Assembly (NCBI GenBank): GCA_964613715.1
Contig: CAZTJK010000003.1
Span: 7,322 to 71,321 of the forward strand
Direction of reading: 5' to 3'
Origin: an uncultured Candidatus Saccharibacteria bacterium
GTDB taxonomy: Bacteria; Patescibacteriota; Minisyncoccia; Phycocordibacterales; GWA1-40-21
DNA length: 64,000 bases
How positions within the stretch are numbered: the first letter of the stretch is position 1; every line of letters begins with the position of its first letter. Positions 7,230 through 63,967 of this stretch are shown here, one piece after another. The translations under genes and the position numbers were made by a program. The notes beneath the pieces are model-generated. The model did no database searches, was not told where the DNA came from, and saw nothing but the letters and a program-made list of their open reading frames with translations.

Positions 7230-7234
7230 ATTAT

Positions 7235-8647: not shown

Positions 8648-8682
8648 CCGACCGGGTGCTTGCACCCACCACAGAGCTCTTT

Positions 8683-9756: not shown

Positions 9757-9767
9757 CCCTTACTACC

Positions 9768-10523: not shown

Positions 10524-10528
10524 ATCCC

Positions 10529-10822
10529 ATGAACCACACGACAAAAACCGTGCTGCATGTCATCAAGCGCCCGCATATCACCGAAAAAGCCGGTATCAAG
10601 GCCGAGTCGCAGCATGTCTATACGTTCGAAGTCCTCAAGGGATCTTCAAAGAATGATGTTGCCAAGGCGATCACCGAAATCTACAAAGTCGTTCCGGTGA
10701 AAATCAATATGGTCAACCTTCCGGCAAAGAAAGTCGCACGGGGCGGCAAGGTCGGTCATCAGGGCTCTATCAAAAAGGCGCTTGTCTTCCTGAAGAAAGG
10801 GGATAAGATAGCGTTTATGTAA
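10529..10822 (+). CDS. rplW: 50S ribosomal protein L23
   Basis: The 97-aa sequence LHVIKRPHITEKA...VYTFEV matches uL23. Confidence 0.92.
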   Translation: MNHTTKTVLHVIKRPHITEKAGIKAESQHVYTFEVLKGSSKNDVAKAITEIYKVVPVKINMVNLPAKKVARGGKVGHQGSIKKALVFLKKGDKIAFM

Positions 10823-10832
10823 TTGTACTACC

Positions 10833-11684: not shown

Positions 11685-11696
11685 GTTTCAAATCTA

Positions 11697-11728
11697 AAGC
11701 GGCGCCTTACGGCGCCGCTTTACTTTTC
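11697..11728 (+). terminator. rho-independent terminator after rplB
   Basis: aaagcggcgccttacggcgccgctttacttttcc. It ends the S10 operon after L2. Confidence 0.6.
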
Positions 11729-11737
11729 CTGATTTTC

Positions 11738-11845
11738 TGCTACACTGCTTGCATAAGGCCAAAGACAACCGGCGGCATATGCAGAAGTCCGGTCGAGGTC
11801 CAAACGACACTCTCTGTCGGCCTTATCGGGTCGATTTTTTTATTT
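11738..11845 (+). promoter_or_regulatory. rplJ leader: an extended -10 (TGcTACACT) followed by a long-range helix and a U-tract (candidate L10-L12 autoregulatory attenuator)
   Basis: ataaggcc (11753-11760) pairs with ggccttat (11819-11826). The run tttttttatttc at 11834-11845 sits just before the rplJ RBS. Confidence 0.35.
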
Positions 11846-11866
11846 CAAAAATAAAAAGGAACAAGA

Positions 11867-12358
11867 ATGGCAATTACAAAAGAAAAGAAGAAAGAACTGG
11901 TAGCGGAAATCACAAAGGCACTCGCAGGCTCGAAGTCTGCAGTCTTTGTGAATTTCCACACGCTCAATGTCACGGACGAGCAGGCGATGCGCCGCGCTCT
12001 TCGTAAAGAAGGCGTCGGCTATTTGGTGGTGAGAAAAACGCTTGCCAAGCTCGCGCTTGCGGACGCAGGCATTGCTGGCACCATGCCGGAATTCGCCGGT
12101 GAGCTCGCACTTGTCTACGGCGATGATCTGACTGCTCCGGCGCGCGAATTCTACACGTTCCAGAAGAAATACAACGGCAATGTCAAAATTGTCGGTGGCA
12201 TCTTCGATGGAAAGTACATGAATATCGCGGAAATGACCGGTATCGCAGCCATCCCGTCCCAGCAGACCTTGTACGCACAGTTCGTCAATCTCATCAATTC
12301 CCCGATCCAGCGTTTCGCGGTCGTGCTTGATCAGATTGCAAAGACGAAGACAGTATAA
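11867..12358 (+). CDS. rplJ: 50S ribosomal protein L10
   Basis: [19 protein letters not shown]...[10 protein letters not shown] matches uL10. Confidence 0.9.
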
Positions 12359-12384
12359 TTTATCAACCTACACATAGAACAATC

Positions 12385-12780
12385 ATGGAAGAAAAGAAAG
12401 CAGTTGTGATTCCGGCGAAATTCGAAAAGCTTGTCGCCGAAATCGAAAAAATGTCAGTGATCGACCTCCACGAGCTCGTCAAAACGCTCGAGGAAAAGTT
12501 TGGCGTATCCGCAGCAGCAGTCGCAGTCGCGGGTCCTGCAGCAGGTGCAGCAGCGGCAGCGGAAGAGAAGACGGCCTTTACCGTCGAGCTCACCGATGCT
12601 GGCGCGCAGAAGATCGCCGTCATCAAGGTGGTCAAGGAAGCTCTCGCGCTCGGTCTTGCCGAAGCAAAGGGCATGGTAGATGCGGCTCCGAAGGTCCTCA
12701 AAGCGGACATGAAGAAGGAAGACGCGGAAAAGCTCAAAAAAGATATCGAAGCAGCGGGCGGAAAAGTTACCCTCAAGTAA
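12385..12780 (+). CDS. rplL: 50S ribosomal protein L7/L12
   Basis: An Ala/Pro hinge [20 protein letters not shown] is followed by the C-terminal domain [21 protein letters not shown]. Confidence 0.95.
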
Positions 12781-12800
12781 TAATTCGGCTCCTCAATAAG

Positions 12801-12838
12801 AAAAGGCGGTTTTTGCGAAGCAAAAACCGCCTTTTCTT
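12801..12838 (+). terminator. rho-independent terminator after rplL
   Basis: aaaaggcggtttttgcgaagcaaaaaccgcctttt. Confidence 0.6.
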
Positions 12839-12853
12839 ATGCGTCGTTTGCGG

Positions 12854-12859
12854 TATAAT
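12854..12859 (+). promoter_or_regulatory. -10 TATAAT 7 nt upstream of the ATG at 12867 (leaderless)
   Basis: cggTATAATgtgccccATG. Confidence 0.35.
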
Positions 12860-12866
12860 GTGCCCC

Positions 12867-13484
12867 ATGGAAATTTTGTCCAAGCTTTTCGGTAGCACGG
12901 CGCGGGTGAAGATCATGCGTCTATTTCTGTTCAATCCTGCTGATGCGTTCGATATGGATATGGTTGCCGAGAAATCCCATGTCGATGCCAAGACGGCGAA
13001 GCGCGAATGCGCGCTGCTTGCCCAAGCCGGTATGATCCGTCCGAAGGCATTTTTCAAGCTTACGACCCGCATGGTGCGAGGAAAGAGAGTCGAAAAGCGC
13101 CTAAAAGCGAAGGGCTATGAGCTCAATGGCCATTTCTCATATGTTGCCGGGCTCAAGCATCTCCTGATCAGCACGAAAACGCTCGAAGCGGGGGAGATTC
13201 TGAACCGGCTATCGAAAACCGGCAAATTGAAGCTGGTCATCATCGCCGGGATTTTCACGCGGGAAAAGGACAGCCGCCTCGATATCCTTATCGTCGGGGA
13301 CAATCTCAAGAAATCCGCCCTGGCGAGCGTCATCAAATCCATCGAAGCGGAGCTTGGCAAAGAGCTCCTCTACGCCTATTTCGAGACCAAGGACTTCCAA
13401 TACCGCCTCAGCATGTATGACAAGCTCGTAAAGGACGTACTCGATTATCCTCACGAGGTGCTCCTTGACCGGATGAGCCAATAA
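12867..13484 (+). CDS. winged-helix DNA-binding domain protein, hypothetical
   Basis: The N-terminal wHTH-like segment reads LFGSTARVKIMRLFLFNP...ECALLAQAGMI. The start at 12867 (MEIL) is preferred because the track start overlaps the rplL terminator. Confidence 0.45.
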   Translation: MEILSKLFGSTARVKIMRLFLFNPADAFDMDMVAEKSHVDAKTAKRECALLAQAGMIRPKAFFKLTTRMVRGKRVEKRLKAKGYELNGHFSYVAGLKHLLISTKTLEAGEILNRLSKTGKLKLVIIAGIFTREKDSRLDILIVGDNLKKSALASVIKSIEAELGKELLYAYFETKDFQYRLSMYDKLVKDVLDYPHEVLLDRMSQ

Positions 13485-29740: not shown

Positions 29741-30190
29741 TTACTGCCACGCAGCAAGGATTGCTCCCATCACTGCCACTTCAGTGAGCAAGCTCACGGT
29801 ATCAAAAAGCCAGAGCTTTTTCGATCGGCCCATCCAGATCATTTCTACCGATGACGCCGCTGCGACAAAAAGCCACATCCATGCGCCAAGCACCGCGCCA
29901 CGGTACCAGCTGATCGCGCCCATTAGTGGGGAGGCGAATACGAGCCACATTGCTCCGGAGAGCACGAATGCCAGGACAACATTTGCGACATAGTTTGCAA
30001 ACATCTGCCCTTTCATGCCAGCAAACGTTTCCTTGCCGGTCGGGGTCACGTTTGCAAGCCGCATCCAGATTTTGCCGAAGAGCGGTCCATGAAAGAGAAA
30101 GCCGATGATAAAAGCTGCTGCTGCAGCGACGAGTATTGCGAGAATATTGATCGTGAACATGAGTGAATTATATAATAAGGCTGATAACAC
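29741..30190 (-). CDS. DUF1761-like membrane protein
   Basis: AILVAAAAAFIIGFLFHGPLFGKIWMRLA resembles the DUF1761 N-terminus. 149 aa, 4 TM. Confidence 0.5.
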   Translation of the reverse strand: MLSALLYNSLMFTINILAILVAAAAAFIIGFLFHGPLFGKIWMRLANVTPTGKETFAGMKGQMFANYVANVVLAFVLSGAMWLVFASPLMGAISWYRGAVLGAWMWLFVAAASSVEMIWMGRSKKLWLFDTVSLLTEVAVMGAILAAWQ

Positions 30191-30200
30191 TCTTAGTATA

Positions 30201-30455
30201 TCATTTTTTCTTGTCCTTCCAGTTCCACCACTTCAGCTTCTCGACATCACGCCCACCTTCGGCATAGTACACTGCCGTGCGAAATACATATAAGAGACAG
30301 CGGTCTTGCACCAGACCTGCGAATTTATTCGAGGCATCAAAGAGCTTTTCCGGATCTTTACCAGCGAGGTCTTTTACTTCCTGGATGCCGATTTCTTCCA
30401 AATCTTTCGCGATCGATTCCCCGACGCCCGGGATGATAGTAAGAGGAGATTTCAT
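30201..30455 (-). CDS. helix-hairpin-helix domain protein
   Basis: 84 aa. TIIPGVGESIAKDLEEIGIQEVKDLAGK is HhH-like. Confidence 0.55.
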   Translation of the reverse strand: MKSPLTIIPGVGESIAKDLEEIGIQEVKDLAGKDPEKLFDASNKFAGLVQDRCLLYVFRTAVYYAEGGRDVEKLKWWNWKDKKK

Positions 30456-30683
30456 TGTGCGGGGGCTCGTGAACGACGTTAGAAACGCAGTAATAAATTC
30501 CGACCAAAACTACTCCTTAAATATACCTGAAATTTCAGAAATGAAAAATTCGGATAGCACGCCTGAAATTATACCGGTCATAACCGATACAGACCAAGAC
30601 TCCTGAAGTTATCATCTTTTGTAACTTTCCTATAGAACTTATACACACCTAAACGCATTAGATTTAGGGTAAGTACAAACTAT

Positions 30684-30863
30684 ATGGAAATCTCAAAAGA
30701 AGGGATCGAGGAGTTTAAGCAAGCTCACTTGGAGGTATATGGGTATGAAATATCGGATGAGGAAGCGAGGGAGATAGCCCAGAGACTTGTCGGATTACTT
30801 TTATTGGTAGAAAGGCCGTTACCAGAAGACGTGGAACTAGAAAAAGATGAGGATGATTTTTAA
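30684..30863 (+). CDS. small acidic hypothetical protein (59 aa)
   Basis: ORF MEISKEGIEEFKQAHLEVYGYEISDEEAREIAQRLVGLLLLVERPLPEDVELEKDEDDF, which falls below the 60-aa track cut-off. It is speculative. Confidence 0.2.
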   Translation: MEISKEGIEEFKQAHLEVYGYEISDEEAREIAQRLVGLLLLVERPLPEDVELEKDEDDF

Positions 30864-30893
30864 TAATAAAGGATTGGATACGAGTTCACCACC

Positions 30894-31328
30894 TTAAGAA
30901 ATATCACGAGCAGGGCACACTAAAATATTTTTGCCTACCAGTTCCTTTTTAACTTTTCTGATCAACGCCGCATCATCAGAATAAACAGTTGTTTGAATTT
31001 GAAATAGTTGGGTTTGACGTTGATTTGCCGAGATTTCTGAAAACATAAGCAGTGTTGCCAGAATGGAAACGTCCCCAAATCCCGTCATGTTGTAAAAAGA
31101 ACGCCCACCATACTTGTTAAGAATCTGTCGGTAATGTTTAAGGTAAACTCCTTCATCAAAATCGTTAGTTTTGGAAATTGTAAATATTCGATCTGGAAGA
31201 TGTTTTTTATGAATTATTTCGGTCATCTCAACTTCATCCTCAACATCGGGTACCAAGAAATAATCATCTTGAAGAGTAAGATTATTTTTAAGGATATGTT
31301 GGACGGCGTTTGTATCAATGATGTTCAT
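30894..31328 (-). CDS. PIN-domain nuclease (VapC-like)
   Basis: MNIIDTNAVQHIL (the D-T-N motif). Later acidic residues are at PDVEDE, GFGDVSILA and SDDAALI. The start overlaps the upstream stop (ATGA). Confidence 0.65.
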   Translation of the reverse strand: MNIIDTNAVQHILKNNLTLQDDYFLVPDVEDEVEMTEIIHKKHLPDRIFTISKTNDFDEGVYLKHYRQILNKYGGRSFYNMTGFGDVSILATLLMFSEISANQRQTQLFQIQTTVYSDDAALIRKVKKELVGKNILVCPARDIS

Positions 31329-32521
31329 ATACCAAGCTCATTACGATATTTGCGATAGCCCTTTTTATTAGGTGCTCCCCATATCAAATATTGGGCCTGT
31401 GTACTTGGCAAAGTACCAGCTTGAATCGATCTGTTAATAGTTTGAAATGTAATTCGGCCGCAAAATTTTTCCACTGATGTTGAAATTCGTGGAGCGCGAC
31501 CTCGTCTTTTATTTTTTTTCGGAACATATGGTGGCGGTTTTAATGATTCGTATTCTTGCTTGGAGATAATTCCTCTCAGATGAAGAGTGGTAACCAGCGC
31601 CAGTGGAGAAACCTTTAGCTTGCTGGAAAGAGTATCGATTGTTGATCGGGTTACACGTTCCTTGCGTAGAGGTTCAACCTCTATTGATGGAATAAGGAGT
31701 TCTGACGTAATCGTGTGTAGTCTTGCCGGAACACCAGTTGCCTTCAACATTTTGGTTTTAAAATCCTTATCAAGAAAGTAGTTGTACTGCCCAAGACCAA
31801 TGATTGATAGGAGATAAACCAGTGTATAGATTTGCCGGCTTTCTACCTCATCCGGATTGACCTCGCTTGGAAGGAAAACAAAAGGTACCCGATCATCTTT
31901 AATGACAAAACCACTGGTGTTCCGGTAAACATCGCTTGATACGACCTGGTGCATCGGAAGAATCTTATGTGTCAGGACTCCTCGCGAGACAGTGATGTTT
32001 TTGCTTTCCACTTGACGAATAAGATATTCCAGCGCCTTTCCTTTTCCAGTAAAGCGCCACAATTGATTTCGATCAATTTCGAAATGAGAAAGGATCTGGT
32101 TCGCCGCTTGACTTGGTTGAAATCCATTTATTGACCCGCAGAATAGATTTTTAGGAAAAACAGTTGAAGTTGTCAGGAAATTTTGCTGACGGATTAACCT
32201 ATCGATGATGCGCTTCGAGGTGATATTCCCAGATCCTTTGCGTTTCGCAATAAGTTTGGGAGAGATTTTATATCGACGTTGCTTATCAATATGGTCGATT
32301 TGAATATCGAGATTAGCGGAAGTGAGAAAAAACATCTGCCAAGCAATTAGAATTATCTCGCTTTCTTTTTGGAGATCCGAAAAGTCGATTTGTCCATTGG
32401 TGAATGCAGTACTAAAAACAGGTCTGTTTATCAATCCTTCTTCGGGATAAATTTCAAGAATGCGTTTGACTACGCCATCTTCAATTTCTACGGAATTTGT
32501 ATCGTCGACTGTGACATACAT
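31325..32521 (-). CDS. hypothetical protein (398 aa) with a basic C-terminus, no recognisable domain
   Basis: Co-oriented and translationally coupled with the PIN gene. No P-loop or HExxH. The C-terminus KKNKRRGRAPRIS...KKGYRKYRNELGI is basic. Confidence 0.5.
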   Translation of the reverse strand: MYVTVDDTNSVEIEDGVVKRILEIYPEEGLINRPVFSTAFTNGQIDFSDLQKESEIILIAWQMFFLTSANLDIQIDHIDKQRRYKISPKLIAKRKGSGNITSKRIIDRLIRQQNFLTTSTVFPKNLFCGSINGFQPSQAANQILSHFEIDRNQLWRFTGKGKALEYLIRQVESKNITVSRGVLTHKILPMHQVVSSDVYRNTSGFVIKDDRVPFVFLPSEVNPDEVESRQIYTLVYLLSIIGLGQYNYFLDKDFKTKMLKATGVPARLHTITSELLIPSIEVEPLRKERVTRSTIDTLSSKLKVSPLALVTTLHLRGIISKQEYESLKPPPYVPKKNKRRGRAPRISTSVEKFCGRITFQTINRSIQAGTLPSTQAQYLIWGAPNKKGYRKYRNELGI

Positions 32522-32530
32522 AAAGTTGAC

Positions 32531-33352
32531 CTAATGAGTAGCTTCTTTTGGCGGATTGTATTCGATTTTTGGCGGTAGATCAGTCATTGCATAATGGACA
32601 AACTGCTGACCAAGTTCTGAAAGTTCATACAAATCTTCCTCATCGAAGGCTGATTCCATTGGTTTCGGGCCAGAGCGCGGCACCGGCGATCTTCTCTGGG
32701 GTGTTTTTCCGTAAAAATTACCTTCCGCATCTTTTTCCCGATGTTGTCGGATGATACCACCCATGTTGAGATCACGAATGAGGAGGCGATACAAACCAGC
32801 TTCTGGTGAGTCTTCACGCACTGGACCTTTGCCGATCTTCCGCCAAATCACTCCGCGACTTATTCCGTTTGTGTTATACACGGCAGCGATCACCTGGAAG
32901 TGTAATTCGGAGTAGGTCTTAAGCCAATCAATGAACAACCGTACCACATCGTCACTTGTAATGGTTGAAGCGGCAGCATTCGCAAGAATATTTCTGATAT
33001 AAACTCTTTTTTCCTCGCTTTCTGTCCCCGACCATTCGCGGAACGTTTTCTTCATAAGAGACTGATATTCCTTACTCTCGATCCTTTCGGCTACCTTGTT
33101 GTCATGCATATCAAGCCTTGCCATTATTTCGAGAATGGTTTGCTGTTTTTCTCGTAGTTCATCCTCAAGCATTTTTATCCAATGCTGAAAGAATTTGTTT
33201 ACTTTTTCCTGTTCGTTTTCAGACCAAGCCCCTGCCGCAGCTGAAAATAAGCCACCTGCGAATGGAACTGCGCCACCAATAACTTGCAATGCACCGCGCA
33301 CGATTTTCGGCGTTGGACCTTCTTCTGGTATATTTTTATTTTCTTCGGTCAT
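32531..33352 (-). CDS. hypothetical protein (273 aa) with a Gly/Ala-rich N-terminal hydrophobic segment
   Basis: The N-terminal segment is GALQVIGGAVPFAGGLFSAAAGAW. It overlaps the doc stop by 4 bp (ATGA) and sits 9 bp upstream of the next gene. Confidence 0.5.
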   Translation of the reverse strand: MTEENKNIPEEGPTPKIVRGALQVIGGAVPFAGGLFSAAAGAWSENEQEKVNKFFQHWIKMLEDELREKQQTILEIMARLDMHDNKVAERIESKEYQSLMKKTFREWSGTESEEKRVYIRNILANAAASTITSDDVVRLFIDWLKTYSELHFQVIAAVYNTNGISRGVIWRKIGKGPVREDSPEAGLYRLLIRDLNMGGIIRQHREKDAEGNFYGKTPQRRSPVPRSGPKPMESAFDEEDLYELSELGQQFVHYAMTDLPPKIEYNPPKEATH

Positions 33353-33810
33353 TGCGATACATCCTCAGATTGCATTGCGGCCATTTCTCTGTTATCAACC
33401 AAATGTTTTTCTATCGTTTCTGCTATTTGCTCCATGATGGTAATCCGTTCTGCTGGTTTGCTTCCTGCGATTCCCACCGCGAAATTATACAACTCTATCT
33501 TATTGATATTGAGCCATTTGCCATTTTTGTAGAGAAAATAGAATAGGCTCATGACCGCGATTCGCTTGTTGCCATTTTGGAATGGATGGTTCTTGATCAT
33601 GAGGTAAAAGAAGGTGCTGGCTTTACTCACAAGCCCTTGATATTGGTCTTTTTTGGCGAAACGGAAGAAGGGTGTTTTGATGCAACTTTCAAGCACGTTT
33701 GGAAACCGGGTACCAAAATCAGGGATCGGCTCATCCCAATTCATGAGCTTTTGAGCGAATGCAAAAGCAACGTATTCAATTTCATTGACCGTAATATTCT
33801 TTGTTCTCAT
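33349..33810 (-). CDS. doc: Doc/Fic-family toxin (death-on-curing-like)
   Basis: Fic motif HPFQNGNKRIAV (HxFx[D/N]GNKR). 153 aa. Overlaps the upstream HTH gene by 4 bp. Confidence 0.8.
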   Translation of the reverse strand: MRTKNITVNEIEYVAFAFAQKLMNWDEPIPDFGTRFPNVLESCIKTPFFRFAKKDQYQGLVSKASTFFYLMIKNHPFQNGNKRIAVMSLFYFLYKNGKWLNINKIELYNFAVGIAGSKPAERITIMEQIAETIEKHLVDNREMAAMQSEDVSQ

Positions 33811-34064
33811 TCCTTTCCGAGTTGCTTAAAGACATCCCCATACTCTATTAATGCCCGATCAATAGCTTTTTCTATTTCTTCTTTCTTTGTGGTTCCGATT
33901 GCCTTTCCAAGCAACTCTTCTAATGATTCATAGGGAATGACATAGTTACGTCCGACCTTCTGGGCTTTGATTTCTCCAGATTGGATCTTTTGGAAGACAG
34001 CTATACGGCTCAGATGCAGAATATTGGCTGCTTCTACGGTGGAATACATTGATTTTATAGTCAT
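33807..34064 (-). CDS. HTH (excisionase/MerR-type) DNA-binding protein, the putative antitoxin of Doc
   Basis: 85 aa. STVEAANILHLSRIAVFQKIQSGEIKAQKVGRNYVI is an HTH_17-like motif. It is the first gene of the operon. Confidence 0.7.
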   Translation of the reverse strand: MTIKSMYSTVEAANILHLSRIAVFQKIQSGEIKAQKVGRNYVIPYESLEELLGKAIGTTKKEEIEKAIDRALIEYGDVFKQLGKE

Positions 34065-57631: not shown

Positions 57632-57702
57632 TTGCGGGATCGTCTAATGGTAGGACACGCCCCTCTGGAGGGTGGTATCTTGGTTCGAGTCCAAGTCCCG
57701 CA
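57632..57702 (+). tRNA. tRNA-Gln (anticodon CUG)
   Basis: U1:A72 (tgcggga/tcccgca), D-arm gtc-taatggta-ggac, anticodon arm cgccc-cTCTGGa-gggtg, T-arm cttgg-ttcgagt-ccaag. 71 nt. Confidence 0.75.
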
Positions 57703-57846
57703 GCAAAAAGAACACAGCGATTTTTGCTGCGGGAAGCAAGCGCAGAGCTTGCGTCTTGGACGAGAAGACCTTGAGTATATCGCACGGAGCCTTTGCGAGT
57801 ACGATACGAAAGGTGTACAGTGCCTGTAAGGAACGAGATGCGAAGC

Positions 57847-57862
57847 GGTCCAAGTCCCGCAG
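57847..57862 (+). repeat. exact 16-bp direct copy of the tRNA-Gln 3' end (gtccaagtcccgcagc)
   Basis: It is identical to 57688-57703 and sits 159 bp downstream, immediately before the AT-rich island. Confidence 0.6.
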
Positions 57863-57874
57863 CTAGCAAATCTC

Positions 57875-58268: not shown

Positions 58269-59111
58269 TTATCGCCATATTTTTCCGAATATCCTTTCAG
58301 ACAATGCTATAAGCTCAGAATCGTTTTTAATTGTTTCAAAAATAGGATCTTGATCATATTCTTTCCATCTTTCAAGGACTGACATTTTTAAGGCATCTTC
58401 TTTGAATTTCATCCCATCGAAAGAGCTGCCGCCTCCATAAGTCGAAACTTTTGGCCATTGAGCTACTTCTAGCTCGCAACCCAGCTTTTTTGAAAGCTCG
58501 AGCCTGTAATCCTCATCCAGGAACCATGTATTGAAGTTTATGGTAATTTTGTCAGGTAGATGATTTGTCATTCCCAAAAATTCTCGAGCGTGCGATTTCC
58601 AGACAGTTATCGTATGTGCATAAGCTGCGCTTTTTAGTTTGATATCCTGAAGCGTCAATTCTCGGCCGCTTTTTATCCTGCTTGCGATGAAATTATAAAT
58701 ATCTCGCAGAATGAGTATACATTTCCTATTTTTGTACGGAGCGAAGTGATTGGCAAAATCATCTACTGACATGGGTAAATGGGCAGGATCGAGATTCTCG
58801 AAATTCATCATTAATAGATTTTTTTCAGAATTGAAAATCCTTGTTTTTATATCCCTTGTTTCTGGAAGGAATTCCTTAAGCTTTTCCTTTACTAATCCAT
58901 GCTTGACCCAGCTATCGCTTATCTTAGAATAGTATTTTCTGTTATTATAGTGATATTGGACTCGGTTTTCGAATAGAGAGTCAGGCGATGAGAAATCGCA
59001 ATAATTGAAGAAGAATTTTTCCGGCCCAAATTGCTCGTAGATCCATTCCATGACCCCATGGTGGCCGCTACGGGACATCGCTATCACGAGGAATAAGTTT
59101 TTATTAGGCAT
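58269..59111 (-). CDS. sulfotransferase-like P-loop protein (tentative)
   Basis: 280 aa. The N-terminal LFLVIAMSRSGHHGVMEWI resembles a PAPS-binding 5'-PSB loop. AT-rich island gene. Confidence 0.35.
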   Translation of the reverse strand: MPNKNLFLVIAMSRSGHHGVMEWIYEQFGPEKFFFNYCDFSSPDSLFENRVQYHYNNRKYYSKISDSWVKHGLVKEKLKEFLPETRDIKTRIFNSEKNLLMMNFENLDPAHLPMSVDDFANHFAPYKNRKCILILRDIYNFIASRIKSGRELTLQDIKLKSAAYAHTITVWKSHAREFLGMTNHLPDKITINFNTWFLDEDYRLELSKKLGCELEVAQWPKVSTYGGGSSFDGMKFKEDALKMSVLERWKEYDQDPIFETIKNDSELIALSERIFGKIWR

Positions 59112-59126: not shown

Positions 59127-59618
59127 ATGGAAATAAAATCAAAAATTAGCAATACTGACGGAAGCGAGACAGAAATTACTTACATCGATACTCAATCGTT
59201 TGATAGTTTAGAGTGCGATAAAGTACGGCAAGCATACGGAGTATGTTTCCTCAACGGACAGATGCTCATTGTTTTTAATCGTAAACGCAAAGCCTGGGGA
59301 CTCGTGGGCGGCAGTCTTGAAGTAGGAGAAACCTATGAGGAATGTTTGAAAAGGGAGGTGGAAGAAGAGGCAAATATGCAGGTTCTTAATTTCCAGCCAA
59401 TCGGCTATCAAAAAGTGGATATTCCTGCAAAGGGATTCATATATCAGCTTCGCTATGTCTGTATTATTGAACCACTCGGTCCTTTTGTCGCAGATCCAGA
59501 CGGTTCAATTACTGAGATCAAGCTCATCGACCCTACAACTTACAAAGAGTATTTTGATTGGGGGGATATTGGCCATCATATCATTACCAAAGCAATCGAA
59601 ATCAGTCGGTCGCTTTAA
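59127..59618 (+). CDS. Nudix hydrolase
   Basis: Nudix box GGSLEVGETYEECLKREVEEEANM. 163 aa. Confidence 0.8.
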   Translation: MEIKSKISNTDGSETEITYIDTQSFDSLECDKVRQAYGVCFLNGQMLIVFNRKRKAWGLVGGSLEVGETYEECLKREVEEEANMQVLNFQPIGYQKVDIPAKGFIYQLRYVCIIEPLGPFVADPDGSITEIKLIDPTTYKEYFDWGDIGHHIITKAIEISRSL

Positions 59619-59680: not shown

Positions 59681-60214
59681 ATGCTCGATGAAATAGTTCA
59701 CATTATGCTGAAGCCTGACACTCTCGAGTGCGGCATCCGTAATGTAATCCTTGATGAACTGTTGAAGGTTGGCGGAAGCCTGATTTTTTCCAAACGGTTG
59801 GTTCTTACCATGTCGCAGATTTCAGTCATTTATCCTCACTTCGGTAATGAGAGGGCTAAAGGAGCAGTCTTCCATTATTTTACTTCCCGTGAAACCGAAC
59901 ATCTTGCTTTTGGGGGACCAAAAGGAATCCATGCTCGGTATCAAGAAGCGAAAGGAAAAACGGGAACCGGGATTGGTATAAAGGGAAAGTATTATACTCG
60001 ATATACCAAACTGACTGAGGACGAGCTCAGAAAATGGTTCGACGGGACTCTTGAGAACATACAAGATATTGATCTTGAAATGTTCGGAAGAGACATCCTC
60101 CATATTCCGAATTCTCCCGAAGAAAGTATAAATGATATCTTTTCTGTTTTTGAACCTTGTGAAATAGCTGTCATCAGCACGTGGTATCAGTTTCCGAAAA
60201 GAACTTGCGTGTGA
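59681..60214 (+). CDS. nucleoside-diphosphate-kinase-like protein (divergent)
   Basis: N-terminal IVHIMLKPD and RDILHIPNSPEE are reminiscent of the NDK NIIHGSD region. 177 aa. Confidence 0.4.
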   Translation: MLDEIVHIMLKPDTLECGIRNVILDELLKVGGSLIFSKRLVLTMSQISVIYPHFGNERAKGAVFHYFTSRETEHLAFGGPKGIHARYQEAKGKTGTGIGIKGKYYTRYTKLTEDELRKWFDGTLENIQDIDLEMFGRDILHIPNSPEESINDIFSVFEPCEIAVISTWYQFPKRTCV

Positions 60215-60238: not shown

Positions 60239-60862
60239 ATGCAGGATAAAAAAATTGTCATCTTCGATTTTTGGCAAACTTTGGCTGACGCTCAGCTCAA
60301 GCCTTCTTTCTTGTTGGGATTTTTTCCACTACCCAAGCCAGATTTGCATACTTTTTTAACAAGACTTTCCAGTTCAGATCTTTATTTAAAAGATGTTGAG
60401 ACCATCAAGGGAGTAGCGAATTTCCTTTTGCATTTCGATATTACAGATAAGAAAATCGTCGAAAAGATATCTTCCGCCTGGAAAGATTTAATCAAGACTG
60501 TTTATATTATTCCCGGAGCTTTAAAAATGATATCCGATCTGAAAGCACATGGGCATGCGGTATGTCTCATGAGCAACACTGATAAATTCGGCCATGAGCA
60601 TTTTCCTTTCCCTGAATTTTTTAAAAAATTCGACATGTTTTTCCTTTCATATAAAGAGGGTTTTGCAAAGCCAGATTTAAAATGCTGGCAGATTATTCGA
60701 GACCGTTCGGGGTATACTTATGACGATATGATTATGATAGGGGATAGCATGGAAAATGATATCTTACCCGCTCATGAGCTGGGCATAGATTCTATCCATA
60801 TTCAGAGGCAGGGAGACTTTGGCGTAGTGTATGACCGCCTGATAAACCATTCCGATGTATAA
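60239..60862 (+). CDS. HAD-superfamily hydrolase
   Basis: Motif I VIFDFWQTLAD, motif II CLMSNTD, motif III K (KPD), motif IV GDSMENDI. 207 aa. Confidence 0.75.
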   Translation: MQDKKIVIFDFWQTLADAQLKPSFLLGFFPLPKPDLHTFLTRLSSSDLYLKDVETIKGVANFLLHFDITDKKIVEKISSAWKDLIKTVYIIPGALKMISDLKAHGHAVCLMSNTDKFGHEHFPFPEFFKKFDMFFLSYKEGFAKPDLKCWQIIRDRSGYTYDDMIMIGDSMENDILPAHELGIDSIHIQRQGDFGVVYDRLINHSDV

Positions 60863-61931
60863 ACTGAAAATCGCATTCGTATATCCAAAGCGTTATTCCT
60901 TTTATCCTCCTGATTATGTATCTAGAGGCTTAGGAGGAACCGAAAGCACTCTCGTGCTTCTCGCGAGAGCTATCGCTAGACTCGGGCATGCAGTCGAAGT
61001 GTATAATTGCTGCTTCAAGCCGGGCGTTTATGATGGTGTTGTCTGGAGTTCTCTGTTAGATATCGATTCAAAAAGAGAATATGACGTAGTCATTTCTTTG
61101 CGCCTTCTTGAGACATTCCGAGACTATCATTTCAATGCAAAGCTCCGTGCTTTGTGGATCCATGACGAAGCCCTGAGTGGTGCTGAAGATTTTGATAAGA
61201 ACGGGATTGTAAATACGTGGATTTCAGTTTCGGAAACTCAAAAGAAAAGCCTATGTCGAGATCAATATATCGAAGATACACATTGGTTCGTCACTCGCAA
61301 TGCGTATGATGAGGACATATATACTGACGAGCTGAGAAAGACGAAGAAGATAAAAAACAGAGCCATTTACTGCAGCGCTCCCGATCGAGGGCTTAAATAT
61401 TTGCTTGAAATGTGGCCTGCAATAAAAGCAGAGGTACCTGATGCGAGTCTCGTTGTAACTGGCAGCTATGCTCTTTGGGGTACGTCTGACGAGGAAAATA
61501 AGCGGATCTTCGCCGATATTTATTCAATGGCTGACAAAACCGATGATGTTCAAATTCTCCAGAGGGTTTCCAAGCAAGAACTCTCAAAACTTCAGGTAGA
61601 AAGTGAGGTCATGCTGTATCCTACGGATTTCAACGAGATGTTTTGTATAAGCGCCCTCGAGTGTTTTGCTGCTGGAACGCCGATTATTTCTTCCAAAAGA
61701 GCCGCGATGATTGAACGAGTGGAAGAAGGTAAAACAGGATTTCTTATCGATGGAGATCCGAAAAACCTTGATTGTAAAGAACGATTCATTGCAACCGCGG
61801 TGAGATTTTTGAATGATGAAAAGATGAAACATGAATTCTCAAAAAATACTCTTCGTTCTTCTGCGAAATTAAATTTCGATAATCTTGCTCGGGAATGGGA
61901 AATTGAATTAATGAAGCGCCTTGAAATATGA
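60855..61931 (+). CDS. GT-B glycosyltransferase (family 4-like)
   Basis: C-terminal EALECFAAGTPIISS...GKTGFLI matches the GT4 nucleotide-sugar binding region. 358 aa. Confidence 0.7.
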   Translation: MYKLKIAFVYPKRYSFYPPDYVSRGLGGTESTLVLLARAIARLGHAVEVYNCCFKPGVYDGVVWSSLLDIDSKREYDVVISLRLLETFRDYHFNAKLRALWIHDEALSGAEDFDKNGIVNTWISVSETQKKSLCRDQYIEDTHWFVTRNAYDEDIYTDELRKTKKIKNRAIYCSAPDRGLKYLLEMWPAIKAEVPDASLVVTGSYALWGTSDEENKRIFADIYSMADKTDDVQILQRVSKQELSKLQVESEVMLYPTDFNEMFCISALECFAAGTPIISSKRAAMIERVEEGKTGFLIDGDPKNLDCKERFIATAVRFLNDEKMKHEFSKNTLRSSAKLNFDNLAREWEIELMKRLEI

Positions 61932-63457
61932 AAGTGGCAATCGGAGTATGTGCGAGGAACGAAGAGGCATGCATTATCCAGACATTGGATTCAATCCTTG
62001 TGTCCGCAGCGAGGATTGAGAACCTAGATTGGTCGCTTTTCGTGTGTGCGAACGGATGTACTGACACCACTGTCGATCTCGTGAGAAGCTGGTGGAAGGG
62101 AAATCCCGGCTGTAAAGGCACTCTTGTTGTTTTGGATCAGGCGAATTTAGTCGAAGCTCAGAGGGAAATCGTAAATATTTCAAAAGCCGCAGGATATAGC
62201 TCTATTATATTTTTCGATGCGGATGTAGTAGTCGATCCTCTCTGTATAGGTGCATTATTGAACGCTGCTCAAGCGGATGAAGTTCAGGCTGTTTATGCAG
62301 TTTCAGTACCGATTACGAGAGACAAGCGGACTCTTATCGAGAGGGCTTTGAACCAATACGATCTCTCATCCTCTGTTTTCACTGAAAGGAAACATCTTCA
62401 TGGTCGGGGCTTCCTGATTAAGGACTGGTATATTCCCATGACAAGTCCCAAGCTTGTGGCTGATGATATGTATCTCTCTTTTTCCCTGCTTAAAAAATAT
62501 GGTCCTCAGTCAATAAAAAAAGTCCCTTCAGCAAAAGTTTATTTCAGACAGATAATTTCTTTTACGGACTTTTACAAGGCCTATCGTCGAAGGAGTATAG
62601 AATTAAATAAATGTCTTGCGCTATTCCCTGAATTCAAGCTATTACCGGCAGATCAAATAAATCGCAGGATACTTTGGAAAAAGCTTTTCAGCGAATCGTC
62701 CAGACGGCTACTCTTGTGGTTCGTGCTATTCTTCTTTAAATTAGTCTCCCGCATCCGATATGCATTTGAAAAGAATATTTCTGAAGAATGGATACCAACA
62801 GATACAAGCAAGAGAACAAAGTACAGACCCATACTGGTCCTTGTGGAGGGTCTTGATTGCTCTGGGAAAAAGACCGTCTCCCGGATACTTCAACAGAAAT
62901 TTTTGGACGCAGGCATTTCTTGCAGGGTTAATAAAGGCCCTCTGAATTCAAGGGGGTATAGAGCTCTCTCAAGATTAGTGAGCCTATACCCATTCCCAAA
63001 TGTTATCAGGTCTCTCGTTTACTCGCTGGAGGGTATTGGGGAAAAAGAATGGTTCCGATATTTTTCGACCCAAGTAGTAGTGCAGATTTCTTCACCATAC
63101 CGTAATTGGGCGTATGCACATTGCAATAAAAGCCACTTAAGAATCTTTATTTCCCAAAAAATAAAGAGGTTTATTGCGCACTACGATTTCATCTTTTTTC
63201 TCACGGCCCCTTACGGTATTCGTCTTCAACGTCATGCAGCGCAAGTTTCTTCGGGTGAGAATCCGGACCACATTGAAAAAAGATTTTTTGGAGAACAGAA
63301 GTTTAATGAAATGGAATTTATTCTGAAGAATCTTTTCAAAGTATCTAACCCAATTGATGCTGAATTTGACAGTTCGATCCAATCATCGGTAGCTATCGCT
63401 ACGGATATTTTTTCACGCGTTGTTATAAAAATCCCCAAAACATCAGACATTGTCTAG
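61928..63457 (+). CDS. fusion protein: a family-2 glycosyltransferase domain plus a thymidylate-kinase-like P-loop domain
   Basis: The N-terminus MKVAIGVCARNEEACIIQTLDSIL...DADVV is GT2. After about residue 300, ILVLVEGLDCSGKKTVSRIL is a TMK-like P-loop. 509 aa. Confidence 0.6.
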   Translation: MKVAIGVCARNEEACIIQTLDSILVSAARIENLDWSLFVCANGCTDTTVDLVRSWWKGNPGCKGTLVVLDQANLVEAQREIVNISKAAGYSSIIFFDADVVVDPLCIGALLNAAQADEVQAVYAVSVPITRDKRTLIERALNQYDLSSSVFTERKHLHGRGFLIKDWYIPMTSPKLVADDMYLSFSLLKKYGPQSIKKVPSAKVYFRQIISFTDFYKAYRRRSIELNKCLALFPEFKLLPADQINRRILWKKLFSESSRRLLLWFVLFFFKLVSRIRYAFEKNISEEWIPTDTSKRTKYRPILVLVEGLDCSGKKTVSRILQQKFLDAGISCRVNKGPLNSRGYRALSRLVSLYPFPNVIRSLVYSLEGIGEKEWFRYFSTQVVVQISSPYRNWAYAHCNKSHLRIFISQKIKRFIAHYDFIFFLTAPYGIRLQRHAAQVSSGENPDHIEKRFFGEQKFNEMEFILKNLFKVSNPIDAEFDSSIQSSVAIATDIFSRVVIKIPKTSDIV

Positions 63458-63532
63458 TATGTCCGGTTCGTAGTTTAAGAGGCAAGTATGGCATGGTATA
63501 CTCACTTATGTATGTGTGCAAGAAGAAAAACT

Positions 63533-63967
63533 ATGAATAAATCAAATCCAGTCGTACATTTTGAAATGGGATATTTCGATCGTGAGCGGATGAAGAAATT
63601 TTACGAGTCTGCATTCCAGTGGAAGATGCAGCAGCTCGGGAAAGAGATGGGGAGCTATGTCGTGGCACAAACAGCAGAGACCGATGCCAATGGCATGGTG
63701 AAAACGCCAGGCACGATAAATGGCGGCTTTTATCAGAAAGCAGAGAGCCCGGGTTCTCATGCACCGTCTGTTGTCATTTCCGTTCATGATATTCAGGCGG
63801 CAATCAAGGCAGTGAAAGCAGCAGGCGGTAAAATCCTCGGCGCTATGGATCAGTCCGGCAAGCAAAGCATGGAACCACAAATGATACCCGGCGTCGGCCT
63901 CTGGATTTCTATCGAGGATACTGAAAAGAATCGGGTAAGTATGTTGCAGCCGCTTGCCGGCAAATAA
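63533..63967 (+). CDS. VOC/glyoxalase-family protein
   Basis: MNKSNPVVHFEMGYFDRERMKKFYESAFQW is a VOC N-terminus. 144 aa from the internal ATG. Confidence 0.55.
   Translation: MNKSNPVVHFEMGYFDRERMKKFYESAFQWKMQQLGKEMGSYVVAQTAETDANGMVKTPGTINGGFYQKAESPGSHAPSVVISVHDIQAAIKAVKAAGGKILGAMDQSGKQSMEPQMIPGVGLWISIEDTEKNRVSMLQPLAGK

Follow-up and report, generated by a model that had tools for sequence, protein, structure and literature searches.

The fusion gene and its locus

The window (the whole 64,000-nucleotide stretch of DNA that was analysed) contains a gene in which a GT2 glycosyltransferase domain is joined to a thymidylate kinase (TMK)-like P-loop domain (Table 1). The GC content was 0.39–0.43 across 58–64 kb, compared with approximately 0.52 upstream. 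The first-pass annotation had placed the fusion gene in a low-GC island with genes for a GT4 enzyme, a HAD phosphatase, a Nudix enzyme, and an NDK-like protein; all of these were found, and the drop in GC was confirmed by computation. The Nudix, TMK-like kinase, NDK-like, GT4, and GT2 components are encoded in one operon and are co-inherited, and the idea that the fusion and its Nudix, NDK-like, HAD, and GT4 neighbours belong to one functionally linked unit that is inherited together was upheld.

Table 1. Coordinates of the features at the locus (positions in the window)
Feature	Position	Strand	Remark
tRNA-Gln	57633..57704	+	Upstream edge of low-GC island
Exact 16-nt repeat of tRNA-Gln 3' end (att-like scar)	57848..57863	+	
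Orphan 280-aa protein	58269..59111	-	Divergently transcribed; conserved beside cassette in Patescibacteria
Nudix hydrolase, cassette-specific subfamily	59127..59618	+	
Divergent NDK-like protein	59681..60214	+	Keeps equivalents of NDK K12, Y52, T94, and catalytic His (H141)
HAD-IA phosphatase	60239..60862	+	Overlaps GT4 start by 8 bp
GT4 glycosyltransferase	60855..61931	+	Most conserved kinase partner
GT2-kinase fusion gene, 509 aa + stop	61928..63457	+	ATG overlaps GT4 stop codon (ATGA)
GT2 (GT-A fold) glycosyltransferase domain with C-terminal helical extension, residues 1-286	61928..62785	+	Profile, alignment, model
DxD motif D97-A98-D99	62216..62224	+	Invariant in 36 homologues
Interdomain linker, residues 287-300	62786..62827	+	Only internal low-confidence segment of model
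Thymidylate-kinase-fold P-loop kinase domain, residues 301-509	62828..63454	+	Profile alignment, model, fold search
P-loop E307-G-L-D-C-S-G-K-K-T316, subfamily signature	62846..62875	+	Alignment
LID motif R432-x-x-R435-H436	63221..63235	+	Invariant or near-invariant in all kinase types

In the NDK-like family, K11, Y51, T94, and H141 are invariant; the window copy scored 17.6 bits against PF00334 (cut-off of 27), and some members exceed the cut-off, among them a fused copy from Ferruginibacter with 31.8 bits. One relative of the 280-residue orphan protein is fused to a Nudix domain. The assignment of this protein as a sulfotransferase was rejected, as Pfam and profile-versus-PDB searches were empty, and the orphan partners UNK426 and UB360 likewise gave no match in Pfam and PDB searches. 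No transmembrane segments were predicted in the cassette proteins, and the core of the cassette lacks a flippase, a polymerase, a priming transferase, and any membrane protein. Membrane anchoring of the fusion protein through the hydrophobic helix 258–281 was considered and discarded, as the highest 19-residue Kyte–Doolittle mean was below 2; in the fusion protein of the window, this peak lies within a beta strand of the GT-A core.

The fusion of GT2 and TMK-like domains in one 509-residue protein is real and conserved. The gene is a single unbroken frame that matches the sequence quoted in the first-pass annotation, and no stop codon or frameshift was found within it. Approximately 40 full-length homologues of the same architecture (41–62% identity) were identified in Patescibacteria, for which such a search had been proposed, as well as in Kapaibacteria, Bacteroidota, and one Gammaproteobacteria MAG, and the linker length is conserved among these independent assemblies and phyla. 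An identical fusion protein is encoded by an independent Logan contig, and the full-length AlphaFold model of the two domains had a pLDDT of 89.6 and a pTM of 0.86. An assembly artefact is excluded because of the homologues across phyla; together with the unbroken frame, the Logan copy, the linker, and the model, they leave a negligible chance that two genes were joined by an assembly or frameshift error. No support for such an error was found, though a split GT2-plus-kinase arrangement does occur elsewhere: at a more distant locus (L013), which holds the sole true split pair found, the GT2 stop codon overlaps the start of a stand-alone kinase gene. No free-standing kinase genes were found beside the GT2-only relatives of approximately 300 residues at loci L008–L010. 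Fusion relatives were absent from the phage records, and the plasmids yielded only distant GT2s. Full-text literature searches retrieved no account of either the fusion or the cassette.

Domains of the fusion protein

The N-terminal half was matched by Pfam Glycos_transf_2 (PF00535) over residues 5–136 with 40.4 bits (cut-off of 23.3), and the GT2 domain recognised in the first-pass annotation was further borne out by the invariant DxD motif and the GT-A fold of the model. The other invariant residues of the domain are N11-E12, D46, H156-L-H-G-R160, and D179-D180. A Foldseek search of the PDB retrieved Chs1, CvHAS, PcManGT, HS2, and AvpGT, with E values down to 6e-11. This half is best explained as a metal-dependent GT-A (GT2) glycosyltransferase, which is a predicted activity. 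It shares the GT-A fold, the DxD motif, and helices following the catalytic domain with PcManGT/DPMS-like enzymes, the cores of hyaluronan and chitin synthases, and AvpGT, but the identity to these enzymes is just 10–18%. Unlike the membrane GT2 enzymes, the fusion has no predicted transmembrane segment, and the kinase domain replaces the membrane domain. AvpGT, a GT-A enzyme of similar fold that glycosylates nucleosides, is a nucleoside 3'-O-glucosyltransferase (PMC11959488).

The best sequence matches of GT2 and GT4 were protein- or wall-glycosylating enzymes such as GmaR, TarS, GalT1, SdgA/B, BshA, and MshA. The GT2-only relatives (45–52% identity) have GT8 and GT11 fucosyltransferase genes, methyltransferases, and a hexapeptide acyltransferase as neighbours, and one of these loci also has two NTP_transf_3 nucleotidyltransferases. 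The surroundings of these kinase-less relatives look like ordinary oligosaccharide assembly.

The C-terminal half had been annotated as a thymidylate-kinase-like domain with a recognisable P-loop and LID, and the profile alignment and the model agree that it is a P-loop kinase domain of the TMK fold. Single-sequence searches gave only sub-threshold P-loop matches (PF02223, 15.7–18.6 bits against a cut-off of 27; TIGR00041, 16.3–19.6 bits against 83.25). The family profile was aligned end to end with P. falciparum TMPK (PfTMPK; query 303–493, chain 7–198, E value of 5e-4). The kinase domain modelled alone with AlphaFold had a pLDDT of 92; its best 50 PDB matches were nearly all thymidylate kinases (TM-score of 0.60–0.73), hydroxyl kinases ranked below NMP kinases among its structural neighbours, and the viral structures matched were dTMP kinases (TM-score up to 0.74). 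Weaker stand-alone relatives of the kinase grade into proteins above the Pfam TMK cut-off.

The domain shares with Tmk the fold, the EGxD...GK P-loop with the 3'-OH Asp, the cis-Pro after strand 2, an aromatic residue at the base-stacking site, a Tyr at the sugar-discriminating site, and an Arg-rich LID. The P-loop Asp D310, the cis-Pro P338, the stacking Y365, and the sugar-discriminating Y396 are in register with PfTMPK in a residue-level alignment that rests on 14–18% identity; R361 lies four residues ahead of the stacking Tyr, and R432, R435, and H436 fall on the LID of 1rz3 and on that of TMKs in the alignments. In contrast to Tmk, the family has SSPxR in place of DR[YHF]: S389 is aligned with the Asp of the motif, the Arg-Tyr has no counterpart, the phosphate-binding Arg is out of register, and an invariant R392 follows three residues later. 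The thymine-O4 Arg (human R76, Pf R78) is also left without an Arg partner, being aligned with the Gly in YSLEG. The P-loop Lys K314 is present, but the [ST] position is occupied by K315, followed by T316, and the P-loop holds an invariant Cys; neither this GKKT loop nor the fused glycosyltransferase is found in Tmk. GKKT, as opposed to GK[ST], resembles the GKGT of adenylate kinase. Judged by its marks (EGLDCSGKK, Y365, R392, RxxRH, and RF), the kinase forms a rare subfamily of its own.

Among 36 fused, stand-alone, and type-B kinases, four Arg residues are invariant, and an invariant carboxylate occurs only in the P-loop. This pattern is that of a phosphate-acceptor (NMP-type) kinase, and the kinase half is best explained as adding a phosphate to a phosphate, with a predicted conversion of an NMP-like to an NDP-like compound. 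The first-pass annotation had offered two roles for the domain. The phosphorylation of a hydroxyl of the glycosylated product is disfavoured because of the four invariant Arg residues and the lack of an invariant carboxylate outside the P-loop. As for the channelling of a dTDP-sugar, the domain is not a bona fide dTMP kinase, as it scores below the curated cut-offs and is devoid of both DR[YHF] and the thymine-O4 Arg, and this role is therefore without specific support. A canonical Tmk making dTDP for dTDP-sugars was rejected on the same grounds, and the core cassette contains no RmlA-like gene or other sugar-1-phosphate nucleotidylyltransferase.

A mobile cassette in several phyla

Rather than being a peculiarity of Patescibacteria, the fusion and its cassette occur on mobile elements of several phyla, and the fusion marks a horizontally mobile cassette that was previously undescribed. 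In all adequately flanked loci examined, the kinase is accompanied by a member of the same GT4 family, a Nudix enzyme, and a divergent NDK-like protein. The cassette-type GT4 accompanied the kinase in 24 of 25 loci (E values of 1e-83 to 1e-189 in the adequately flanked ones), the exception being L023, where the contig truncates the fusion gene. Nudix and NDK-like genes or domains were found wherever the flanks suffice. Four fusions link the components, namely GT2–kinase, Nudix–NDK-like, NDK-like–Nudix (in Nocardiopsis), and kinase–NDK-like (in the type-B protein P0076). The C-terminal half of P0076 was aligned with the NDK-like family by hhalign at 83.5% (E value of 8e-6) using a 14-sequence family profile, and the assignment is credible only with this profile, the single-sequence alignment being weak (28%).

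The core of kinase, GT4, Nudix, and NDK-like protein, in a form that lacks the GT2 fusion, also occurs in Streptomyces and in further lineages. In type-B cassettes, GTP cyclohydrolase II takes the place of the HAD and the extra Nudix, and in some cases it is fused to NADAR. GTP cyclohydrolase II is another enzyme that takes an NTP to a pyrimidine-type NMP. The cassettes lie on conjugative elements (ICEs), between transposases, or, as in the window, beside a tRNA gene. Neither the 50,697 phage records nor the 2.9 million viral contigs searched contained relatives of the cassette, and no relative of the NDK-like protein was found in the phage records. An assignment to a known or candidate anti-phage defence system was rejected, as PADLOC-DB 2.0 returned only generic matches (Nudix to PDC-S07 and NADAR to PDC-M42C) and none for the kinase, GT4, GT2, or NDK-like protein. 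No base-modifying enzyme (ThyA-, TET-, or JBP-like) was found in the window cassette genes or in common to the variants.

Proposed pathway and comparison with known systems

The bifunctional enzyme would be the signature gene of a mobile cassette with four co-inherited activities (a TMK-fold kinase, an NDK-like histidine phosphotransferase, a Nudix pyrophosphohydrolase, and GT4), to which the window adds a HAD phosphatase and the fused GT2. The cassette most likely phosphorylates and glycosylates an unusual nucleotide, and we tentatively favour a nucleotide-centred glycosylation pathway as the best reading. The Nudix enzyme (and HAD) would convert a nucleoside triphosphate to the monophosphate or nucleoside; GT4 and GT2 would glycosylate the nucleotide, or a nucleic acid or metabolite receiving it; and the dedicated kinase and the NDK-like enzyme would raise the non-canonical NMP to NDP and NTP, on the premise that host kinases would not accept it. 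Domain identities and folds, the retention of catalytic motifs, co-inheritance, fusions, and the mobile-element setting were shown by the analysis. The logic of the pathway is by analogy with the nucleotide reprogramming of phage T4, RB69, and Z-genomes, and we infer the direction of flux and the identity of the nucleotide, the sugar, and the end product (a small molecule or a modified nucleic acid). In favour of this reading are the conserved fusion, the TMK fold and NMP-kinase pattern of the kinase domain, the catalytic residues kept by the NDK-like partner, the co-inheritance and the network of fusions, the swap to GTP cyclohydrolase II in variant cassettes, the GT4 relative in a 7-deazapurine nucleoside-type cluster, and the phage analogues described below. 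Because the cassette variants share no base-modifying enzyme, a sugar-accepting hydroxyl on a canonical base is missing, which counts against this reading, as do the oligosaccharide-like contexts of the GT2-only relatives, the low identity of the PfTMPK alignment and its out-of-register phosphate-binding Arg, the GKKT P-loop, and the absence from the phage collections searched.

On the unlikely side, the cassette may instead build a glycan, with GT4 and GT2 assembling an oligosaccharide on a protein, lipid, or small acceptor (e.g., a mobile-element-encoded surface or pilin modification) and the kinase, NDK-like, Nudix, and HAD proteins merely recycling NMP/NDP by-products and controlling NDP-sugar levels. 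This would fit the neighbours of the GT2-only relatives and the top GT2 and GT4 matches, and Nudix enzymes that trim NDP-sugars are known from polysaccharide clusters (WcaH/Gmm). However, the NDP released by Leloir-type GT2 and GT4 enzymes needs no NMP kinase, and Bacteroidota and Streptomyces own housekeeping Tmk and Ndk, yet the divergent copies stay strictly linked or fused to glycosyltransferases. The lack of flippase, polymerase, priming transferase, membrane protein, and transmembrane segments also speaks against glycan assembly, and a housekeeping role does not readily explain why type-B cassettes carry GTP cyclohydrolase II instead.

It is quite improbable that the kinase phosphorylates the glycoside made by the fused GT2, as LpxK acts after LpxB or as in the final ThuE step of thuringiensin, with HAD dephosphorylating it later. 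A fusion does imply that one domain acts on what the other produces, pairs of GT4 and HAD phosphatase classically use phospho-acceptors (sucrose-P and GlcNAc-inositol-P), and hydroxyl kinases exist among P-loop kinases of the TMK-like fold class. Against this stand the four invariant Arg residues without an invariant Asp or Glu as general base outside the P-loop, the ranking of NMP kinases above hydroxyl kinases among the structural neighbours, and the strict linkage and fusion to an NDK-like domain, whose substrate class is NDPs, which points to a relay from NMP through NDP to NTP. More improbable still, the domain may have no catalytic role and instead bind a nucleotide (e.g., the released NDP) as a sensor or tether through which GT2 is regulated. 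The Lys at the Walker A Ser/Thr position and the missing DR[YHF] would suit such a role, but adenylate and UMP/CMP kinases are active enzymes with GKxT P-loops; the P-loop Lys and the LID Arg, together with other Arg and aromatic positions, do not vary among fused and free-standing members from distant phyla; and the free-standing members have no glycosyltransferase to regulate.

A further and in our view unlikely proposal is a cell-borne, horizontally mobile pathway that makes a glycosylated non-canonical NTP: Nudix or GTP cyclohydrolase II would take an NTP to the NMP, GT4 and GT2 would glycosylate it, and the dedicated TMK-like and NDK-like kinases would return it to NDP and NTP. The product would be built into element or host nucleic acid, where it would protect against restriction as a hypermodification found outside phages, or it would act as a nucleotide analogue against viruses or bacteria; each of these uses, if true, would represent a new class of nucleotide-modification system with the GT2–kinase fusion as a channelling step.

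Until now, the placement of dedicated NMP kinases beside glycosyltransferases has been characteristic of DNA hypermodification in phages, and here the two activities are joined in one polypeptide. The compact, multi-fusion cassette moves among Patescibacteria, Bacteroidota, Kapaibacteria, and Proteobacteria, with a second form in Actinomycetota, on conjugative elements and transposons. If a glycosylated nucleotide is made, nucleotide-level glyco-modification would be extended from viruses to cellular mobile elements, and a glycosyltransferase, an NMP kinase, and an NDP kinase would constitute a small portable enzyme set for modified NTPs. If only glycan synthesis is served, the cassette would still represent an unrecognised coupling of glycosyl transfer to nucleotide recycling. 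Either way, the EGLDCSGKK kinase, the divergent NDK-like protein, and the cassette GT4 are three uncharacterised protein families with clear signatures.

The closest analogues of the cassette are the DNA-cytosine glycosylation clusters of phages RB69, DLP3, and RL38J1, together with the T4 pathway of gp56, gp42, gp1, Ndk, and alpha- and beta-GT. In RB69, DLP3, and RL38J1, a TMK-like kinase directly adjoins the first DNA glycosyltransferase, and a dCTP pyrophosphatase and a phosphatase belong to the pathway (Lee et al., NAR 2026, PMC13326640); in RB69, the glycosyltransferase (ORF46-47) comes first and adjoins the TMK-like ORF45, which is also the order of glycosyltransferase and kinase in the fusion (PMC13326640). 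In the phage clusters as in the cassette, GT-B glycosyltransferases (BshA/MshA-like, GT4-type) are combined with an NTP pyrophosphohydrolase, a phosphatase, a dedicated NMP kinase, and an NDP kinase step. In contrast to the RB69/T4 type, the cassette encodes neither a ThyA-like base hydroxylase or hydroxymethylase nor enzymes for NDP-sugar synthesis, and it uses Nudix in place of a MazG-like dCTPase. Its kinase is fused to a GT-A (GT2) enzyme, it supplies an NDK-like protein of its own, and it lies on cellular mobile elements, with no occurrence in the phage collections searched. Homology of the window kinase and glycosyltransferases to RB69 ORF45 or ORF46-47 was rejected, as the match was confined to the P-loop.

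Nucleoside natural-product clusters (e.g., those for 7-deazapurines) similarly combine Nudix, HAD phosphatase, kinase(s), and glycosyltransferase on a nucleotide scaffold. A GT4 of the same family (HMM E value of 1.5e-70) was found on a Streptosporangium plasmid in a 7-deazapurine nucleoside-type cluster with QueC/D/E, nucleoside 2-deoxyribosyltransferase, TMK-like kinase, Nudix, and HAD genes, but its kinase and Nudix are from other subfamilies. Unlike such clusters, the window cassette has no scaffold-building enzymes; it is small (5–7 genes) and mobile across phyla, including the genome-reduced Patescibacteria.

The GT2–kinase fusion and its operon

The first-pass annotation had described the 509-aa product of the fusion gene as a glycosyltransferase family 2 (GT2) domain joined to a thymidylate-kinase-like P-loop domain, and the sequence it quoted matched the ORF at 61928-63457 exactly. 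The Pfam GT2 domain covered residues 5–136 (40.4 bits; cut-off, 23.3). For the C-terminal half, single-sequence searches gave only sub-threshold matches of approximately 35 residues around the P-loop (thymidylate kinase, APS kinase, and similar), and a family profile spanned the whole kinase domain when aligned with P. falciparum thymidylate kinase (PfTMPK; query 303–493, chain 7–198, E 5e-4). AlphaFold2 predicted two domains for the whole protein (pLDDT 89.6, pTM 0.86), poorly defined only at the linker (289–300) and the last few C-terminal residues. The PDB matches of the whole model were GT-A/GT2 enzymes (Chs1, hyaluronan synthase, PcManGT, heparosan synthase, and the nucleoside glucosyltransferase AvpGT). 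Modelled separately, residues 296–509 (pLDDT 92) matched thymidylate kinases almost exclusively in the PDB (TM 0.60–0.73, 14–18% identity) and jumbo-phage dTMP kinases among viral predicted structures (TM up to 0.74). The full-domain profile alignment and the TMK-like model thus bear out the assignment of the C-terminal half to the P-loop kinases.

The gene reads as one open frame of 509 codons, and the homology search retrieved approximately 40 full-length homologues (505–530 aa, 41–62% identity) of the same architecture, together with approximately 17 proteins of approximately 300 aa that comprise the GT2 part only. No stop or frameshift separates two genes here, and the alternative that the fusion is an artefact is almost certainly wrong; the fusion is real, and more widespread and structured than could be seen from the sequence alone. 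Among 36 aligned full-length members, the GT2 half was invariant at N11-E12, D46, the DxD motif D97-A-D99, H156-L-H-G-R160, and D179-D180. The invariant positions of the kinase half were E307-G-x-D-C-S-G-K-K-T316, Q386, S388-S389, R392, Y396, R432, R435-H436, Q439, N445, and R452-F453.

The ATG of the fusion gene overlaps the GT4 stop codon (ATGA), and 8 bp are shared between the HAD gene and the start of GT4, indicating that Nudix, NDK-like, HAD, GT4, and fusion genes form a tightly packed operon. The GC content falls from approximately 0.52 to 0.39–0.43 over 58–64 kb of the window, downstream of the housekeeping genes prfB, ftsE, and ftsX. The final 16 nt of tRNA-Gln (GTCCAAGTCCCGCAGC) recur exactly 144 bp downstream, just ahead of this low-GC island (chance expectation, 0.03 matches), and the repeat looks like an att-like integration-site scar, with the far boundary past the window end.

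Coordinates of features in the window and in homologous loci
Locus	Feature	Coordinates (strand)	Remark
Window	Second low-GC patch	30000-34000	GC 0.40-0.42; four co-directional ORFs (-)
Window	Fic/DOC-family gene	33349-33810 (-)	in second low-GC patch
Window	tRNA-Gln	57633-57704	low-GC island starts just past it
Window	tRNA-Gln 3' 16 nt	57689-57704	
Window	Exact repeat of 16 nt	57848-57863	
Window	Orphan 280-aa	58269-59111 (-)	
Window	Nudix	59127-59618	co-directional operon member
Window	NDK-like	59681-60214	co-directional operon member
Window	HAD	60239-60862	co-directional operon member
Window	GT4	60855-61931	co-directional operon member
Window	GT2-kinase fusion	61928-63457 (+)	509 codons
Window	Glyoxalase/VOC, then VIT1	63488-63967 (+)	downstream of fusion gene
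L001	Glyoxalase/VOC, then VIT1	3812-4288	downstream of fusion gene
L002	Orphan ~426-aa	6659-7927	
L003	Orphan ~426-aa	6671-7951	
L007	Orphan ~426-aa	6591-7880	
L018	Orphan ~426-aa	2496-3776	
L019	Orphan ~426-aa	2959-4245	
L008	NDK-like	9059-9577 (-)	beside GT2 relative without fused kinase
L013	NDK-like	696-1082 (+)	beside GT2 relative without fused kinase
L028	Type B operon	3600-13000	Streptomyces sp. 150FB
L041	Phage glycosyltransferase region	3147-7307	phage MW202524
L042	Plasmid gene cluster	59466-84503	NZ_CP109431, record positions
L043	Six-gene cassette	993-8941	Kapaibacterium

The glyoxalase/VOC-family gene and the VIT1-family (iron transporter) gene that follow the fusion gene are not kept beside the cassette in other genomes and therefore probably lie outside it. 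The second low-GC patch, which encodes a Fic/DOC-family protein and three orphans, was probably acquired horizontally as well; downstream of the cassette in one homologous locus (L044) there is likewise a Fic gene. The orphan 280-aa protein is kept beside the cassette in Patescibacteria and has 81 relatives, none with a Pfam domain, one of which (P0218, 435 aa) is fused to a NUDIX domain. Its invariant RSGxH...W and RDxxNxxAS motifs resemble, by eye, the PAPS-binding motifs of sulfotransferases; Pfam and profile-versus-PDB searches gave no match.

Conservation, variants, and mobility of the cassette

The contigs of distant homologues carried the same neighbours each time, and BLAST and HMM searches supported orthology across phyla for GT4 (48–65% identity), NDK-like (35–65%), HAD (33–43%), and fusion proteins (42–54%). 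Cassettes with the GT2–kinase fusion (type A) have two layouts. The Patescibacteria layout, which includes the window, is orphan 280-aa (opposite strand), Nudix, NDK-like, HAD, GT4, and GT2–kinase. The second, in Ferruginibacter, Kapaibacterium, a Gammaproteobacteria MAG, and some Saccharibacteria, is HAD, an orphan protein of approximately 426 aa, GT4, a Nudix–NDK-like fusion, GT2–kinase, and a small Nudix. In Ferruginibacter, the NDK portion of the Nudix–NDK-like protein scored above the Pfam NDK cut-off. In the ~426-aa orphan, Cys49, His89, and Asp104 are invariant and may form a triad of the papain/transglutaminase type; a TPR-like region follows, and neither Pfam nor the PDB gave a match.

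A one-genome-per-species scan followed by an HMM census yielded 10 loci with the fused kinase and 15 with a stand-alone kinase of the same P-loop (type B), the latter in eight Streptomyces species, Nocardiopsis, Streptosporangiaceae, Verrucomicrobia, Hydrogenedentota, and others. The cassette-type GT4 accompanied the kinase in 24 of the 25 loci (E 1e-83 to 1e-189); only L023 lacked it, on a contig that truncates the 5' end of the fusion gene. Wherever flanks sufficed, a Nudix of the cassette type was found as well; it was missing on the short L015 and L023 contigs.

One operon plan recurs in metagenomic L011 and at most of the loci with a stand-alone kinase. It comprises GTP cyclohydrolase II, which Streptomyces has as a fusion with NADAR, then a GT2 from another subfamily, an orphan protein of approximately 360 aa (present at 14 of the 15 stand-alone-kinase loci), kinase, an additional domain, Nudix, and GT4. 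The Saccharibacteria locus L026 departs from this plan, with a GT2 gene directly abutting the stand-alone kinase. The additional domain has its own gene at most loci, and is N-terminal to Nudix in a Nocardiopsis fusion, and C-terminal to the kinase in the homologue P0076. As its 14-sequence profile matched the NDK-like family (hhalign, 83.5%, E 8e-6) and collinear KPDA and RNLVHV motifs flank the match, its sequence identifies it as a predicted NDK-like domain with an insertion of approximately 80 residues. The type B operon of L028 also has a TPR protein and NADAR–GTP cyclohydrolase II, and the operon occurs likewise in L027, L029–L040, and L011/L012. It is uncharacterised, and its presence in cultured Streptomyces makes it experimentally tractable.

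Four independent fusions join the components (GT2–kinase, Nudix–NDK-like, NDK-like–Nudix, and kinase–NDK-like). L013 is a true split form of the first, with a mini NDK-like gene, a GT2 of the window subfamily, and a stand-alone kinase, the GT2 stop and the kinase start overlapping. The NDK-like family of the window retains the catalytic His and equivalents of NDK K12, Y52, and T94, and several of its members reach Pfam NDK. The GT2/NDK-like link is independent of the fusion, since an NDK-like gene also adjoins GT2 relatives lacking a fused kinase. The protein in L013 is minimal (128 aa) and precedes the split pair; the gene in L008 neighbours GT8, GT11, and methyltransferase genes.

The cassette repeatedly lies among mobility genes. 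In Ferruginibacter, it is inside a CTnDOT-type conjugative transposon, with TraG, TraJ, and an 1832-aa helicase/methylase nearby, and at another locus it lies between TraG/TrwB-like genes and serine recombinases. It adjoins recombinase, DGR, and FtsK-like genes in a Patescibacterium, a resolvase and ParB-methyltransferase elsewhere, and Mrr, SRAP, and a Y-family polymerase in L011. In Kapaibacterium (L043), the cassette is flanked by an rve-family transposase and, at its opposite end, by DDE_Tnp_1 transposase genes, an arrangement like a composite transposon. The window cassette itself is the low-GC island at a tRNA gene. The cassette was absent from 50,697 phage records and 2.9 million viral contigs; plasmid records gave only distant GT2s and one GT4-family member, and PADLOC defence models only generic Nudix and NADAR matches. 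An uncultured podophage (L041) encodes, directly past the major capsid gene, a 761-aa protein with a C-terminal part that matches the full-length window GT4 at 28% identity; two more GT genes and methyltransferases follow, possibly a virion or DNA glycosylation module.

The kinase subfamily

A bona fide Tmk was ruled out, with scores far under the Pfam and TIGRFAM cut-offs. In an exhaustive search of 1.84 billion cluster representatives, the kinase profile reached no more than 194 clusters at E<=1e-3, of which 18 had E<=1e-30. The set includes stand-alone kinases of 205–230 aa with the same EGLDCSGKK P-loop, and weaker relatives grade into proteins above the Pfam TMK cut-off. In the profile alignment with PfTMPK, at 14–18% identity, four TMK features would be retained: D310 as the P-loop Asp of TMK type, P338 as the cis-Pro, Y365 (aligned to Phe74) as the aromatic residue that stacks on the base, and Y396 (aligned to Tyr107) as the Tyr that discriminates the sugar. 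The changes would be SSPxR in place of DR[YHF], Gly for the thymine-O4-reading Arg, and Lys then Thr (GKKT) for the Walker Ser/Thr; the adenylate kinase P-loop is GKGT. That the domain is a non-catalytic nucleotide-binding module appears very improbable.

The signature of the 36 members compared (fused, stand-alone, and distant) was EGLDCSGKK, G337, R361, Y365, S388, R392, R432-x-x-R435-H436, and R452-F453. Outside the P-loop, four Arg were invariant, R361 was present in 32 of 36, and no carboxylate was invariant. Within this fold class (NMP-kinase/dNK), hydroxyl kinases need a general base. The invariant Arg and the lack of an invariant carboxylate suggest a phosphate acceptor (NMP to NDP), unlike a hydroxyl kinase. 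Phosphorylation of a glycoside product by the kinase domain is accordingly a reading we regard as distinctly unlikely.

Proposed function of the cassette

The best reading, held tentatively and at somewhat less than an even chance, is a nucleotide-centred glycosylation pathway. The strict co-inheritance and repeated fusion of an NMP-kinase-like protein, an NDP-kinase-like protein, and an NTP/NDP-X pyrophosphohydrolase argue for a nucleotide as the main substrate rather than a by-product. The GT2–kinase fusion suggests that the product of one domain is handed to the other; in the simplest case, the GT2 half would pass a glycosylated NMP to the kinase half. GTP cyclohydrolase II converts GTP into a pyrimidine-type ribonucleoside 5'-monophosphate, and its presence in type B cassettes counts as support for a nucleotide or nucleoside context. 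So does a cassette-GT4 family member (E 1.5e-70) on a Streptosporangium plasmid (L042). That plasmid region also encodes QueC/QueD/QueE, nucleoside 2-deoxyribosyltransferase, a TMK-like kinase, APH-type phosphotransferases, HAD, Nudix, and a methyltransferase, and looks like a pathway for a glycosylated 7-deazapurine nucleoside.

No base-modifying enzyme is common to the cassette variants, which leaves the sugar acceptor unexplained under the nucleotide-centred reading. A second weakness is that kinase-less GT2 relatives adjoin GT8 and GT11 fucosyltransferase genes and methyltransferases, surroundings as in ordinary glycan assembly; one of these relatives has an adjoining NDK-like gene and another the cassette Nudix nearby. 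A third is that what is read from individual residues depends on alignments at 14–18% identity. Nucleotide housekeeping that serves a glycan-building GT pair is the corresponding alternative, which we judge rather unlikely; some probability is also reserved for mechanisms other than those named here.

Both fusion domains belong to known superfamilies, and public databases automatically label members as 'glycosyltransferase' or 'thymidylate kinase'. In the full-text literature, we found no description of the fusion, the EGLDCSGKK kinase subfamily, the divergent NDK-like family, or the mobile cassette uniting them. We class the cassette among nucleotide-modification and glycosylation gene sets. 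That it is a new class, a mobile pathway carried by cells that makes a glycosylated NTP, is an unlikely hypothesis.

The enzyme set of the cassette has a logic reminiscent of that in T4, RB69, and Z-genome phages, in which canonical NTP is converted to NMP and modified there, and dedicated kinases, needed because host kinases reject the modified NMP, restore the triphosphate (PMC13326640). In RB69, DLP3, and RL38J1, a TMK-like 'nucleotide kinase' was described in 2026 directly beside the first DNA glycosyltransferase (PMC13326640). The GT and TMK-like genes of RB69 abut in GT-then-kinase order. RB69 ORF45 and the window kinase have only the P-loop in common, and the parallel is one of architecture only; we count the arrangement in the three phages in favour of a nucleotide or nucleoside context for the window cassette.
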